Part shown: piece after piece, positions 3,869 to 7,218 of the stretch
Layout: each line of letters starts with the position of its first letter
Numbering within the stretch: position 1 is the stretch's first letter
Assembly: GCA_045598385.1 (NCBI GenBank)
Contig: JAZLLY010000016.1
Span: forward strand, 68,064 to 132,063
Reading direction: 5' to 3'
Source of the DNA: Eubacteriales bacterium
GTDB taxonomy: Bacteria; Bacillota; Clostridia; Oscillospirales; CAG-272
DNA: 64,000 nt
Position numbers and translations under genes: made by a program
Notes under the pieces: model-generated
Told to the model about the DNA's origin: nothing
Databases searched by the model: none
The model's input: only the letters and a program-made list of their open reading frames with translations

Positions 3869-4705
3869 ATGCCTGAAAACAGAAATACAGGGAACGGGTT
3901 ATCTTTCGATAACCGCGGTACGGTATGTATCGATACTTACCGTGTTCTCGACTGTTGCCGTGACCGCGACTGTTTTGAAGACACTCGTGTCTATCTTACA
4001 GCGAGCGGAGAAGATATCGTCGCCAACGCGACAAACGTCAAGACGCGAAACGCGCAGATCCTGTGGGCTTACGTCGGCGTGGAAAAAGTACCTTTTAACG
4101 ACGGATTTTATCAGATCACCGTACGCTATTATATTGAAGTCGAATGCGAGGCCTGTTGCGGCATCAACCGCAGTCAGATCGTTCGCGGTCTCGCCGTGCT
4201 CGAAAAGAAAGTCGTTCTTTTCGGCGGTGAAGGCAGCGTAACGACGTTTTCTTCGTCTCCGGCAAATCAGTTCTGTAACATCCGCGACTTTGACACGGTG
4301 GGGAATAATGAACCTACCGCAATCGTGGAAACAGTCGAGCCCGTCGTTCTCAGTACAAAAGTACTGTGCAAGGAAGATCCTTGCGCCGGCAGCATCGAAC
4401 TGCCGGAATTGATCCGCGGGAAATTGAACAGTGAACTGATCTTCATTTCAGAAAGACCGCATCTGTACGTTTCATTCGGTTTGTTCTCGGTGATCCGAAT
4501 GCAGCGTCCGACGCAGATACTCGTATCCGCAACGGATTACAGCGTGCCCGATAAAGAATGCCCCTCGACCGGCGGCGACGAAAATCCGTGTATGCTGTTT
4601 CGTTCCATCGCGTTTCCGACAAGCCAATTTCAGGGAACGAAGGGCGAAACGAAAAAACAAAATGATCACGGCATCTGCGGATGCTCCGGCGGAAAAATCA
4701 ACTGA
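3869..4705 (+). CDS. Cysteine-rich uncharacterized protein; a spore-associated role is speculative
   Basis: ATG at 3869 preceded by GGGAGA; the track ORF starts at an upstream GTG. Cys clusters include CIDTYRVLDCCRDRDC, ECEACCG and ICGCSGG. No enzyme motif recognised. Confidence 0.6.
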   Translation: MPENRNTGNGLSFDNRGTVCIDTYRVLDCCRDRDCFEDTRVYLTASGEDIVANATNVKTRNAQILWAYVGVEKVPFNDGFYQITVRYYIEVECEACCGINRSQIVRGLAVLEKKVVLFGGEGSVTTFSSSPANQFCNIRDFDTVGNNEPTAIVETVEPVVLSTKVLCKEDPCAGSIELPELIRGKLNSELIFISERPHLYVSFGLFSVIRMQRPTQILVSATDYSVPDKECPSTGGDENPCMLFRSIAFPTSQFQGTKGETKKQNDHGICGCSGGKIN

Positions 4706-4752: not shown

Positions 4753-5538
4753 TCAGTTGTTTATTTCATTTTGACGCGCAATTTCATAAGCAAACATTGT
4801 GGCTGCGGATGCGGCAGAAAGGGAAGCGCGGAAGTTTCTGGCATACGGAATCCGCACTTTCAGATCGGCAGAATCGACGACGGCTTTCGTCATCCCGCGT
4901 TTTTCGCCTCCCACAATCAAAAGCAAAGGAAGAGATAATGAGACTTTTCCCAAAATGTTATCGGATTTTTCTTCGGCGCATACGACTTGATAACCTTTTG
5001 ACCGGAAGATTTTGACTGCATTTTGTGTCTCATCGACCGTATAAAGCGGCAACATTTCCGAAGCACCGGCGGAACTGCGGCACACAACACCGGCCGCGCT
5101 CATCCAGTTTCTTTTCGGCAGCACGATCCCGTCAACGCCGCAGGCGTAAAGAGAACGCAAAGAATAGCCGAAATTATAAGGATCTTCAATGCCTTCCGGC
5201 ATCACGAAAAAACCTTTTTGAGGGAAGTCGGACAGGGAAGATAAAGAGGGAAGAGTACGTTCCGTGCATTGTGCGACGATCCCTCCGTGAGAATTGCCTG
5301 TCGTTAAGGAATTGAGAAAATCTTCGTCAACTTCCCTGATTTCATAACCGAATTGATCCTGAACCGCTTTGAAATATCCGATTTCTTTTCGATTTTTCGC
5401 AATTTTTGACGAATCGAGATAGATCGTTTTGATCTTTCTGTCGCTGATACCGTGCTCGAGACCGTATATAACGGCTCGCAACGATGTCATGCCCTCAAAA
5501 ACGGCAGAATCTATGAATTTTGTCTCTTCTTTTATCAT
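4753..5538 (-). CDS. TrmH/SpoU-family RNA 2'-O-methyltransferase (RlmB-like)
   Basis: Has a SpoU_methylase C-terminal domain (LLLIVGGEKRGMTKAV...RIPY...SLSAASAATMFAYE) and an N-terminal substrate-binding-like domain. Confidence 0.8.
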   Translation of the reverse strand: MIKEETKFIDSAVFEGMTSLRAVIYGLEHGISDRKIKTIYLDSSKIAKNRKEIGYFKAVQDQFGYEIREVDEDFLNSLTTGNSHGGIVAQCTERTLPSLSSLSDFPQKGFFVMPEGIEDPYNFGYSLRSLYACGVDGIVLPKRNWMSAAGVVCRSSAGASEMLPLYTVDETQNAVKIFRSKGYQVVCAEEKSDNILGKVSLSLPLLLIVGGEKRGMTKAVVDSADLKVRIPYARNFRASLSAASAATMFAYEIARQNEINN

Positions 5539-5594: not shown

Positions 5595-5858
5595 ATGGAA
5601 TTATTCGGAAAAGATCGTTGTGAAGAACTTGCGGAATATGTGATAGAAACCGGATGTACGGTACGTTCTGCGGCAAAGCATTTCGGAATCAGTAAAAGCA
5701 CGGTACATAAGGATCTGACGGAAAAACTCAAAAACTACGGTTCGACCCTTTATGAAGAAACCCAAAGAGTTCTGAAGAAAAATAAGTCCGAGCGCCATTT
5801 GCGCGGAGGCGAAGCCACAAGACAAAAATATCTGAAAACAAAAATTTCGACTCGCTAA
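5595..5858 (+). CDS. spoIIID: Sporulation transcriptional regulator SpoIIID
   Basis: From MELFG the protein aligns residue-for-residue with B. subtilis SpoIIID (YVIETGCTVRSAAKHFGISKSTVHKDLTE...RHLRGGEATRQKY). Start set at the second ATG, which has GGTGA upstream. Confidence 0.92.
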   Translation: MELFGKDRCEELAEYVIETGCTVRSAAKHFGISKSTVHKDLTEKLKNYGSTLYEETQRVLKKNKSERHLRGGEATRQKYLKTKISTR

Positions 5859-6260
5859 TGTCATTATATCATAACTTGAGATTTTTTCAAGAATAAATCA
5901 TTCTATGACTATCTTGATCTCGTCATATAAAATAAAGAAAAAGACAGAGCGCTCGAGCGCAAAAACACGCTTAATAGCATTATTGGCTTATTTTCAGCAT
6001 TTTCAGGCCATTTTTCCGCTTCTCCGTTATACAAAACATTTATTTTGTATAATTACTTGTTATGAATAATGGGTCGGTACGGTCTGCCCTCTAAACTGAA
6101 ACGCCTGTGCTTGTTTAGGAATGTGCAGCCCCTTTACTCATAAAAATCTATCGGAATTGGTTAAAATGATGACCAGTGGTTACGGTTGTTTGTAATTATC
6201 AATTTACTTTCATTGCTCTTCTCTGCCATTCTAATTTCATCTTCAAATGAACTAATCCAC

Positions 6261-6337
6261 CAAGGGTTGTGTACGAAGAACACCGCGGAAATACTTTTCC
6301 GAGCGAATCCCACTCTCTTACAACAAAAAAGCACCAC
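6261..6337. repeat. Repeat A, distal copy (77 bp)
   Basis: Matches 6909-6985 at 72 of 77 positions. It contains small hairpins (GTGT..ACAC, CGGAAA-TACT-TTTCCG). At all 5 differences this copy carries A. Confidence 0.85.
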
Positions 6338-6379
6338 AAAAGGGTGTCTACCATAGGGATTTTTCCACAAGCTTATAAA

Positions 6380-6415
6380 ACAAGGGCAGAAAGTCGATTG
6401 ACTTTCTGCCCTTGT
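6380..6415. repeat. Perfect 16-bp-stem hairpin
   Basis: ACAAGGGCAGAAAGTC-GATT-GACTTTCTGCCCTTGT. It is followed by TTGTGGCAA x2 in direct orientation (6413-6420, 6432-6440) and x1 inverted (6451-6459). Confidence 0.8.
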
Positions 6416-6480
6416 GGCAATGATTGCGTTTTTGTGGCAAGTTAAGAGAATTGCCACAACCGGGATACCCGGATTTCGGA

Positions 6481-6559
6481 AGTGATGTTGTGCCTGCGGC
6501 ACAGTGATGTTATGGCTATGCCATAGTGATGTTTTGCGGCTTTGCCGCAAAGTGATGAG
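6481..6559. repeat. Array of 4 direct AGTGATG(TT) repeats, each followed by a different mini-hairpin
   Basis: Repeat units start at 6481, 6503, 6525 and 6551 (spacing 22, 22 and 26 bp). The hairpins between them are GTGCC-TGC-GGCAC, ATGGC-TAT-GCCAT and TTGCGGC-TTT-GCCGCAA. Confidence 0.85.
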
Positions 6560-6575
6560 ATGCGTTCCGCTCTAA

Positions 6576-6662
6576 CTATCACGCGCGAAGCGCACATCAC
6601 TCGCCTCAGGCGAACATCACGCTCGCAGCGTACATATCGTTCCGTGCGAGCGGAACACATCG
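6576..6662. repeat. Mirror array of inverted heptads (CTATCAC, ACATCAC x2, ACATATC, ACATCG) alternating with mini-hairpins
   Basis: The heptads lie at 6576, 6594, 6614, 6632 and 6657. The hairpins are GCGC-GAA-GCGC, TCGCC-TCA-GGCGA, CGCT-CGC-AGCG and TTCCG-TGCGAG-CGGAA. In addition, 6648-6661 is the inverted repeat of 6557-6572 with 13 of 14 positions matching. Confidence 0.8.
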
Positions 6663-6692
6663 TTTGGCGGCATTCCCTGTGGAACGCCGCCA

Positions 6693-6730
6693 TTTGTGGG
6701 ACTTTTTTGTGGCGAAGAGAAAGGGATTCG
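6693..6730 (-). repeat. Repeat B, distal copy: a degenerate duplicate of the tRNA-Ser 3' end plus its terminator half
   Basis: Matches 6987-7024 at 36 of 38 positions (TTTGTGGGACTTTTTTGTGGCG[A/G]AGAG[A/G]AAGGGATTCG). The proximal copy includes 21 nt of the tRNA acceptor/T-arm. Confidence 0.85.
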
Positions 6731-6908
6731 TAAGGAGCGTAGCGACGGAAAAGGGAGCGTATTTTCGCGCGCCTGGTAGGCGAAGAAGCGAAAAGGAGCG
6801 AGTGGCAGCGACTTAGCAAAGGTAAACGCCGCTCAAGGCGTGTAACCTTTGCTTAGGAGCAACAGTAAAAACGAGCGAACTTGTTCGCAAAAGTGAAGCG
6901 TCAGCCAT

Positions 6909-6985
6909 CAAGGGTTGTGTACGTAGTACACCGCGGAAATACTTTTCCGCGCGAATCCCGCTCTCTTACAACAAAAAAGCCCCAC
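6909..6985. repeat. Repeat A, tRNA-proximal copy (77 bp)
   Basis: See 6261-6337. This copy carries a perfect 8-bp hairpin (CGCGGAAA-TACT-TTTCCGCG) and abuts the tRNA terminator. Confidence 0.85.
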
Positions 6986-7002
6986 TTTTGTGGGACTTTT
7001 TT
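6973..7002. terminator. Bidirectional terminator downstream of tRNA-Ser
   Basis: CCCAC-TTTT-GTGGG hairpin flanked by A6 on the left and T6 on the right. Confidence 0.6.
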
Positions 7003-7003
7003 G

Positions 7004-7095
7004 TGGCGGAGAGGAAGGGATTCGAACCCTTGAAACCGTATTAGGGTTTACACGATTTCCAGTCGTGCGCCTTAGACCAACTCGGCCATCTCTCC
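7004..7095 (-). tRNA. tRNA-Ser (anticodon GGA), with encoded CCA
   Basis: The reverse complement folds as a class II cloverleaf. It has acceptor GGAGAGA, anticodon arm CACGA-CTGGAAA-TCGTG, a long variable arm (AAACC..GGTTT), T-arm AAGGG-TTCGAAT-CCCTT, discriminator G and CCA. There is one A-C mismatch at pair 7-66. Confidence 0.9.
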
Positions 7096-7107
7096 ACGGA
7101 CTTCCCC

Positions 7108-7136
7108 ATTATAGCAAGAGTTTTCGGAATTGTCAA
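7108..7136 (-). promoter_or_regulatory. Consensus sigma-A promoter for tRNA-Ser
   Basis: On the minus strand, TTGACA, 17 nt, TATAAT, ending about 12 nt upstream of the tRNA 5' end. Confidence 0.65.
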
Positions 7137-7218
7137 GGGATTTTCAAAACTTTTCGGCAAATACGACGAAAATATGGTATAATAGTACAAAAAGCCGAGG
7201 AAGGAACGGAACACGAAC

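Follow-up and report, generated by a model that had tools for sequence, protein, structure and literature searches.

The 355 bp at positions 6338-6692 of a 64,000-nt stretch of Oscillospirales DNA (Eubacteriales bacterium, CAG-272; contig JAZLLY010000016.1, positions 68,064-132,063), the whole of which is called the window here, are probably a repeat that folds on itself, moves (or recombines) non-autonomously and targets intrinsic terminators and tRNA 3' flanks. On profile homology the element is a divergent member of the Gut-1 lineage (RF01706) lying below the Rfam threshold. Its core has two arms, an L arm (6481-6557, + strand) with four AGTGATG(TT) units at 6481, 6503, 6525 and 6551, and an R arm (6576-6664, - strand) with reverse-complement units at 6576 (CTATCAC), 6594, 6614, 6632 and 6657.

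The insert lies in a 1.36-kb intergenic space (5859-7218) between a spoIIID-like gene and a SASA-family gene. The same space holds a tRNA-Ser(gga) gene (7004-7095, - strand; ARAGORN and Rfam), directed at the R-arm side as are the tRNAs of other copies, and an intact bidirectional terminator (6973-7002, AAAAAAGCCCCAC-TTTT-GTGGGACTTTTTT), which is formed where the proximal copies of the two direct repeats described below meet and which serves as the empty-site reference. In the distal, paralogous terminator the 5' half in + coordinates (6325-6337, AAAAAAGCACCAC, consisting of an A-run and GCACCAC) matches AAAAAAGCCCCAC at 6973-6985, and the rest of the loop and the 3' half follow at 6693-6708 (TTT-GTGGGACTTTTTT, with GTGGGAC and a T-run). 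This terminator is interrupted exactly in its loop by the 355 bp, CCAC ending at 6337 and TTTGTGGG beginning at 6693. Direct repeats bracket the insert on both sides, 6257-6337 against 6905-6985 with 93% identity and 6693-6730 against 6987-7024 with 95% identity, and a 21-nt tRNA-Ser 3'-end fragment (6710-6730, - strand; compared with the tRNA at 7004-7095) adjoins the filled terminator. On the simplest account the two terminators of the window are a filled site and, close by, an empty one. An earlier note on this DNA had placed the 355 bp in the loop of the distal terminator, as is seen against the intact paralogue, and the features it listed are present at, or 1-2 nt off, the coordinates it gave. 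At the syntenic locus of the closest usable relative (L123, 82% SpoIIID identity), the tRNA-Ser is on the + strand, a plain terminator comes after it and the array is absent.

The insert folds far better than its shuffles (z = -11.1 on the + strand and -11.5 on the - strand; 0 of 100 shuffles fold as well), and in the minimum free energy folds of both strands the two terminator halves are re-paired. The pattern AGTGATG-N12-22-AGTGATG occurs three times in the window, all inside the insert, and in none of 100 shuffles. Open reading frames (ORFs) overlapping the 355 bp have no support as coding.

Gut-1 lineage and the two-arm core

Gut-1 was described as a run of hairpins with GUGAAAU or GUGAUAU linkers, found only in human-gut metagenomes and given no function, and was rated a likely RNA (Weinberg et al., 2010; PMC2864571). 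In Rfam it has remained an orphan from 2010 on, known only under the description "human gut metagenome, no sequenced organism". An Rfam scan of 5800-7200 at a relaxed threshold, up to E = 10, gave Gut-1 as the only relevant match (6571-6642, - strand; 31.4 bits, the gathering score being 50; E = 2e-4); at the gathering level the tRNA alone passes in the window. ROOL, GOLLD, HEARO and raiA gave no match in 5800-7200 up to E = 10. The large ornate non-coding RNA suggested in the earlier note is partly supported, in so far as the arrays are of Gut-1 type and canonical relatives pass the threshold, and fails for the classes it had named. Both arms have the Gut-1 layout of at least three tandem hairpins with a GUGAxxU linker, in the variant GUGAUGU, the R arm reading as a Gut-1-type array on the - strand.

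Compared with a profile of 54 canonical copies, the window scores E = 2.7e-9 (nhmmer). The core 6481-6664 scores E = 1.2e-36 against a profile of the GTGATGT subfamily, which was built from L308, L315, L209, L270, L247 and L335 (both scans) with the window left out. A metagenome scan for the GTGATGTT variant added closer relatives, namely L288, L308, L371 and L377 (80.6% identity) together with L315, L341 and L335. The Gut-1 scores of sampled canonical copies are 50-73 bits, with the two arms matching in their respective senses; the GTGATGT subfamily is barely visible to the Rfam model, its relatives lying below threshold.

At least 120 loci were found in a pattern scan of one genome per species. 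The working pattern was anchored on the leading A, a three-unit pattern without it being swamped by coding G-D-V/I tandem repeats and giving L013 as its sole real match. Among the matches listed, nearly all hosts are Oscillospiraceae, Acutalibacteraceae, Ruminococcus or 'Clostridia bacterium' metagenome-assembled genomes (MAGs) from animal or human gut; several of these MAGs have two or more copy-bearing contigs, several 8-kb loci hold two or three copies, and many copies are located at contig ends.

The core order is always forward units followed by reverse units, and the opposite was never seen. In each module a short hairpin, unconstrained in sequence, accompanies the conserved 9-mer AGTGAT[A/G]TT. 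Across 54 aligned copies the 9-mers hardly differ, and the hairpin stems vary freely but remain paired: 96.9% of cells are paired (82.5% in shuffles), compensatory cells number 281 (75 in shuffles), and with slid partners only 31-56% of cells pair. Homologs with compensatory stem changes, on which the earlier note had made its proposal depend, are present in gut and rumen Oscillospirales MAGs. In a long-range helix, which competes with a local hairpin, the centre pairs with the initial unit of the gene-proximal arm; the helix is retained across the subfamilies through five unrelated sequences, including that of the window.

Single-arm arrays also occur, and therefore inter-arm pairing cannot be what fixes the sequence of the 9-mers. 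A strict rod of paired arms was rejected as the main constraint for this reason and for the mismatch of the outer units (AGTTATATT and AATATCACT); arm-arm pairing as such is possible. An internal promoter at the third and fourth L units of canonical copies (TTGAAA-17-TGaTATTAT), which would drive the R arm in the stable-loop sense, was likewise rejected as a core feature because on inspection the GTGATGT subfamily, including the window, does not have it.

The hairpin loops differ between the strands. On the strand with AATATCACT (ATCAC), GNA makes up 51 of 106 triloops, nearly all triloops being closed by C-G, and GNRA 30 of 91 tetraloops; on the other strand the numbers are one and none, respectively. 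This bias holds in both arms, so that the preference is dyad-symmetric, and the stable-loop strand is opposite to the Rfam orientation of Gut-1. Read on the ATCAC strand, the R-arm hairpins of canonical copies have precisely the sequences GCGAAGC, GCGTTAGC and CCGAAGG. Mini-hairpins of this kind are extraordinarily stable as DNA and much less so as RNA, and are found at single-stranded DNA (ssDNA) priming sites and in N4 hairpin promoters (2026 review; PMC13037366). In the window the mini-hairpin DNA motif (GCGNAGC / GCGNNAGC) is present by sequence as GCGAAGC at 6585-6591 (+), inside the hairpin 6583-6593.

Terminators, tRNAs and genes beside the copies

Fifteen of the 55 testable copies are nested in a bidirectional terminator that they split, with an A-run and GC-rich half-stem on one side and its complement and a T-run on the other; permuting the flanks gives 1.4 such cases on average and at most 6. 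The outer terminator stem differs in each of the 15 loci. The nested elements are 316-418 nt long and have the same design as the window insert, with a terminal hairpin, the two-arm core, an internal bidirectional terminator and a tail inverting the terminal hairpin. Terminal hairpin and tail match at 17 of 20 to about 19 of 26 positions in the other nested copies by inspection, the ungapped test for terminal inverted repeats (TIRs) being weak. With this nesting in 15 of 55 other copies, the multi-copy dispersal of the family and the L123 locus free of the array, a terminator-targeting non-autonomous element emerges as the best-supported of the alternatives raised in the earlier note.

tRNAs are a second recurrent neighbour. 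A tRNA T-loop is located 56-61 nt from the R-arm end in 12 of 75 copies (16%; 0.7 expected), and all 11 complete tRNAs, of ten anticodon types, are directed into the R arm. Four or five of eight GTGATGT-type copies stand beside a tRNA. In the alignment of PMC2864571, the flank of one Gut-1 seed contains a tRNA 3' end, a terminator, the array, the centre and the reverse array, and another seed is located in a split hairpin. The seed contig BAAZ01000130.1 has four Gut-1 matches about 240 nt apart, which correspond to tandem element copies.

Polarity follows the gene upstream. In 45 of 57 cases the neighbouring gene on the R-arm side is directed towards the element, at a median distance of 65 nt, and single-arm arrays begin 0-60 nt past stop codons in the GUGAU sense. 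The gene-linked polarity is the same under positive and negative GC skew, and orientation set by replication was rejected on this equal bias. In one exceptional placement (L159, ~5124-5255) a single-arm array is found just 5' of the ribosome-binding site of an rbfA-like gene, in the 5' untranslated region (UTR) and not at the 3' side. A canonical copy in L155 (2046-2853) stands at the end of an rRNA operon, in the order 23S, tRNA, tRNA, 5S, tRNA-Asn, terminator, element.

The distal arm of many copies is flanked by an outward promoter, its -35 box 0-8 nt from the last 9-mer and its extended -10 box TGcTATAAT. Promoter and ribosome-binding site form a module that abuts the arm (TTGCAC/TTTACA-17-TGcTATAMT, then GGCGGTGA/GCGAGGTG) with unrelated genes downstream, and that appears to travel with the element; carriers are L147, L155, L158, L166, L225 and L252 (left flanks), and L288, L308, L371 and L377. 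In nine loci (L143, L149, L176, L178, L239, L315, L341, L308 and L371), representing both 9-mer subfamilies, a PF05635 gene (23S rRNA intervening-sequence or Avd-like, weakly bAvd-like) begins 20-50 nt beyond the distal arm and is directed away from it; in L341 it is about 20 nt from the L-arm end, and in L308 and L371 it looks frameshifted. Apart from this gene and an AraC-like cluster of four loci, no protein family recurs within 2.5 kb of about 80 copies, a comparison of unannotated neighbour ORFs clustered only among themselves. The statements on recurrent neighbours below have this scope.

A search of plasmid and phage collections yielded a single weak match, to a phage, and none to a plasmid. 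One viral contig carries a copy (L013, 1377-1570, - strand) that has a head-tail-connector-like gene on one side and the next gene on the other. In L001 (190-300) and L380 an array is found beside a tRNA 3' fragment, where it is probably the host flank at a prophage end.

Anatomy of the window copy and its surroundings

The insert begins with a terminal tail (6338-6379), a TIR-like imperfect inverted copy of the opposite end. It is followed by the internal terminator-like hairpin H_L (6380-6415, - strand), a perfect 16-bp stem (100% complementary) with TTTTAT after it on the - strand, in the position of the internal bidirectional terminators of composite copies. Two copy-specific hairpins come next, TTGTGGCAA/TTGCCACAA (6432-6459), with a third TTGTGGCAA at 6412-6420, and CCGGG-ATA-CCCGG (6460-6472). 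Neither these nor the tail have a homolog in the other loci fetched. The interval 6412-6472 also holds degenerate copies of a junction between a T-run and the tRNA-Ser 3' end (repeat families D7 and D19).

In the core, the earlier note had given each of the four AGTGATG units a mini-hairpin of its own. The first three units have one (6490-6502, 6512-6524 and 6534-6550). The fourth is followed instead by the centre segment 6559-6572, which pairs with 6648-6661 (14 nt, 93%) in the long-range helix GAUGUGUUCCGCUC / GAGCGGAACGCAUC and competes with the local hairpin 6639-6656. The R-arm hairpins are 6583-6593, 6602-6612, 6619-6631 and 6639-6656. The long end hairpin of the earlier note, H_R (6665-6692), is present with one position that is not Watson-Crick: it has 11 of 12 pairs on the + strand, with an A.C mismatch, and 12 of 12 on the - strand, with one G.U. 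Its position matches that of the conserved terminal hairpins of other copies.

The surroundings are rich in tRNA-derived sequence. The repeats 6257-6337 and 6905-6985 are + strand remnants of a tRNA-Ser T-arm and acceptor (CAAGGGTT ... CGAATCCCGCTCTCT), so that tRNA 3' ends converge on the terminator from both sides. The T-loop of these remnants is interrupted by about 35 nt with two hairpins (GTGTAC-GTA-GTACAC and CGCGGAAA-TACT-TTTCCGCG), a second insertion into a hairpin loop. The spacer 6731-6904 is purine-rich and has degenerate 30-40-nt repeats resembling the tRNA-Ser 3' end (GTGGCGAAGAGAAAGGGA and similar), which suggest repeated recombination at tRNA-Ser. A perfect promoter (TTGACA-17-TATAAT) is found at 7136-7108 on the - strand, and the unit of promoter, tRNA-Ser and terminator (7004-7150) is inverted relative to L123 (4640-4800).

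A further conserved block lies 3' of spoIIID (window ~6005-6100; L123 ~4395-4480). In it an inverted repeat (TATACAAAA..TTTTGTATAAT) overlaps a -10-like TATAAT; the block has no Rfam match and could be a promoter or operator or a small RNA. Exact-protein look-ups for the proteins of the window genes gave no match on record.

Mobility, rival explanations and known systems

The window insert is best read as a complete copy of a repeat that is non-coding, lineage-specific and dispersed among gut and rumen Oscillospirales, and whose arms are both of Gut-1 type. In this copy the 184-nt core is joined to copy-specific ends: the terminal hairpin, an internal terminator that works in both directions, and the tail mirroring the hairpin. 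The element would land in the loop of an intrinsic terminator, or immediately past that of a tRNA or protein gene, its polarity to the upstream gene being fixed. Self-folding would then rejoin the two host half-stems and, since the element brings an internal terminator of its own, termination of the flanking genes should survive the insertion. The invariant 9-mers, accompanied by strand-specific stable loops, would most simply be repeated docking sites for a putative trans factor acting on single strands. The element is short (355 bp), non-coding, multi-copy and dispersed, as expected of a miniature inverted-repeat transposable element (MITE), with at least 120 loci across genomes.

Several points weigh against a mobile repeat. 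The copy in the window has no target-site duplication: comparison of the empty CCCAC-TTTT-GTGGG with the filled CCAC/AAAAGGG...GCCGCCA/TTTGTGGG shows none at the junction, and possible target repeats of 2-3 nt were seen in two other copies only. The inverted repeat of the ends (6323-6359 and 6674-6710; 37 nt, host stem included) is only 76% complementary. Homology is confined to the 184-nt core, 6338-6480 and 6665-6692 having no homolog in the fetched loci, and a profile search found a single copy in the 64-kb window. Neither a transposase nor a parent element carrying one was found among the recurrent neighbours (2.5 kb around about 80 copies). The history could also be the reverse, with precise loss from the proximal copy, and the tRNA-Ser-end remnants in the left part mean that recombination at the tRNA locus, and not one transposition, may have built the 355 bp. 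Covariation of hairpins in DNA palindromes can arise from template-switch correction without selection. Finally, the strong conservation and the gene-linked polarity fit a selected RNA function equally well.

Such a function would be that of an extended Gut-1 RNA in 3' UTRs and intergenic regions, transcribed with the upstream gene or tRNA, for which dispersal is secondary. Its single-stranded 9-mers would bind an oligomeric RNA-binding protein, with the PF05635/Avd-like four-helix bundle as a candidate, or zip with the second arm as a switch. That the element is primarily a functional RNA is rather unlikely; several observations favour it. Polarity follows the upstream gene and not GC skew, the arrays stand between stop codon and terminator (with single-arm arrays 0-60 nt past the stop in the GUGAU sense), and the position of the internal terminator implies that they would be transcribed from the R-arm side only. 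The G.U pairs of the terminal hairpin and long-range helix are confined to the - (gene-sense) strand, as are three additional pairs (A-U, U.G and U-A) between neighbouring 9-mer ends; the first 5' segment has two alternative partners, both pairings being conserved in a switch-like manner; and to this are added the PF05635 gene abutting the L-arm end and directed away in nine loci and the rating of Gut-1 as a likely RNA (Weinberg et al., 2010; PMC2864571). However, the stable C-GNA-G and GNRA loops of the gene-proximal arm are on the strand opposite to the gene-sense RNA (81 against 1 overall), wobble pairs in the mini-hairpins point in the same direction (7 against 2), internal promoters are not conserved across subfamilies, and the association with PF05635 concerns only about 8% of the loci. 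The loop bias, dyad-symmetric towards the ATCAC strand, fits units acting as ssDNA, as do the R-arm hairpins GCGAAGC, GCGTTAGC and CCGAAGG, which are mini-hairpin DNA (PMC13037366) and are represented in the window by GCGAAGC at 6585-6591. The module would then resemble those of repetitive extragenic palindromic (REP) sequences and bacterial interspersed mosaic elements (BIMEs), or single-strand initiation (ssi) signals, and be read by an HUH-type nuclease or transposase (REP with the REP-associated tyrosine transposase, RAYT, or IS200/IS605) or by a primase, the signal being provided on either strand by the two arms and the target by the ssDNA hairpin loops of terminators. Junctions without target-site duplication and the possible precise excision would fit the 'peel and paste' of HUH enzymes. 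This reading is nevertheless improbable: no Y1/HUH gene is among the recurrent neighbours, polarity tracks transcription and not GC skew, whereas the orientation of IS200/IS605 or REP tracks replication, hairpin sequences are free, whereas REP stems are conserved within a genome, and GNRA and GNA loops are ordinary in RNA as well.

Binding of duplex DNA explains the arrays less well. The 9-mers could form an operator, iteron or centromere, bound about two helical turns apart and controlling the outward promoter of the L arm. The 22-26 bp spacing of the units, the occurrence of both direct and inverted repeats, the conserved outward promoter beside many copies and the likeness of the ATCAC core to the WATCACW heptads of the pSM19035 omega repressor agree with such an array. 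Nevertheless, it is very unlikely: duplex binding does not account for spacers that form hairpins, with massive compensatory change and loops specific to one strand; omega heptads follow one another without a gap; rep, par and repressor genes are missing from the recurrent neighbours; and the window copy has no outward promoter and no plasmid match. For the same covarying spacers, the chromosomal location in 3' regions of unrelated genes, the absence of rep or par genes nearby and the lack of plasmid matches, the iteron or centromere left by a plasmid or phage that the earlier note had considered is not sustained. It is harder still to believe in the remnant of an integrative-element att site, with the 9-mers as arm-type integrase sites beside a tRNA core. 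The window does have duplicated tRNA-Ser 3' ends and degenerate tRNA-end repeats, and the phage or prophage contigs L001 and L380 carry the array beside a tRNA 3' fragment. The distribution largely refutes it, most copies being away from tRNAs and some in phage structural modules (L013) and in terminator loops; no integrase is among the recurrent neighbours, and in the tRNA-fragment cases the array stands in host DNA, towards the original tRNA end that was displaced.

A bolder version of the mobile repeat is conceivable, with low confidence: a hitherto unrecognised class of structure-guided mobile DNA homing to terminator loops and tRNA 3' flanks through arrays of '9-mer + ultra-stable mini-hairpin', read dyad-symmetrically as single strands, possibly with an ssDNA or cDNA intermediate and an Avd-like PF05635 partner. 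If this were true, the Rfam Gut-1 family would be no conventional small RNA and would have been modelled on the less constrained strand. Under the preferred reading as a non-autonomous mobile repeat, the element would be a rare case of insertion targeted by structure and not by sequence, and it would create variation in terminators and promoters, as well as breaks in assemblies, among abundant gut bacteria; as an RNA or ssDNA signal it would point to a putative binding factor. New in either case are the assignment of the Gut-1 family to named Oscillospirales lineages, the recognition of the Rfam motif as one arm of a larger two-arm element, the GTGATGT subfamily missed by the Rfam model, and a testable biology of terminator-loop insertion, fixed tRNA geometry, transcription-tied polarity and a strand-specific loop code.

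Literature searches by sequence, RF01706 and PF05635 gave nothing past the 2010 paper and reviews on Avd and diversity-generating retroelements. The window element shares with Gut-1 the tandem short hairpins, a conserved purine-rich linker (GUGAAAU/GUGAUAU there, GUGAUGU here) and the occurrence in gut-associated bacteria, and differs from it in that the Rfam model comprises three hairpins of one arm. The two-arm core, end modules, terminator nesting, tRNA linkage and strand-specific loops are absent from the published description, as is the assignment to named Oscillospirales genomes.

Signals for initiation on ssDNA provide a second comparison. RSF1010 has two ssi signals on opposite strands beside its iterons. 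The G4 and St-1 origins, ssiA and ssiB of RSF1010 and the promoters of the N4 virion RNA polymerase are like the arrays in having GCGAAGC, GCGTTAGC or CCGAAGG on a defined strand (PMC13037366). The element differs from them in having 3-5 units per arm and at least 120 chromosomal loci, with several copies in some MAGs, and in not being linked to replication or primase genes.

Among elements that home to hairpins, IS1397 and ISKpn1 enter the loops of REP palindromes, group IIC introns are located just after terminators, and intervening sequences interrupt 23S rRNA. They share with the window element the insertion in or beside a stem-loop and not at a sequence-defined site. The 23S rRNA intervening sequences are also alike in hairpin-loop insertion, an extended-stem fold and sometimes a PF05635 coding region, the family that neighbours nine copies here. 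In contrast, these elements code for a transposase or a reverse transcriptase, or are found in rRNA; the window element is non-coding and targets terminators and tRNA 3' regions.

REP, BIME and REPIN sequences with their RAYT are extragenic palindromic units with a short conserved flanking motif, arranged in inverted clusters, located after genes near terminators and present in multiple copies. Palindromic units with a flanking motif, inverted clustering, post-gene location, multiple copies and a presumed action as ssDNA hairpins are common to both. However, in the Gut-1-type element the hairpins differ within an element and between copies, only the 9-mer being fixed, the units are direct within an arm, polarity follows transcription, and no RAYT gene was found near the copies (2.5 kb, about 80 copies). 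Bacterial MITEs with regulatory side-effects include Correia/CREE, ERIC/IRU and RUP. Like them the element is small, non-coding and dispersed, has long stem-loops, lies in transcribed intergenic regions and may carry outward promoters or terminators; unlike them it has imperfect TIRs, no clear target-site duplication and no known parent IS, and contains 9-mer arrays and nests in terminator loops. The element works most like a MITE or a REPIN-type structured repeat, with an unusual, structure-directed target.

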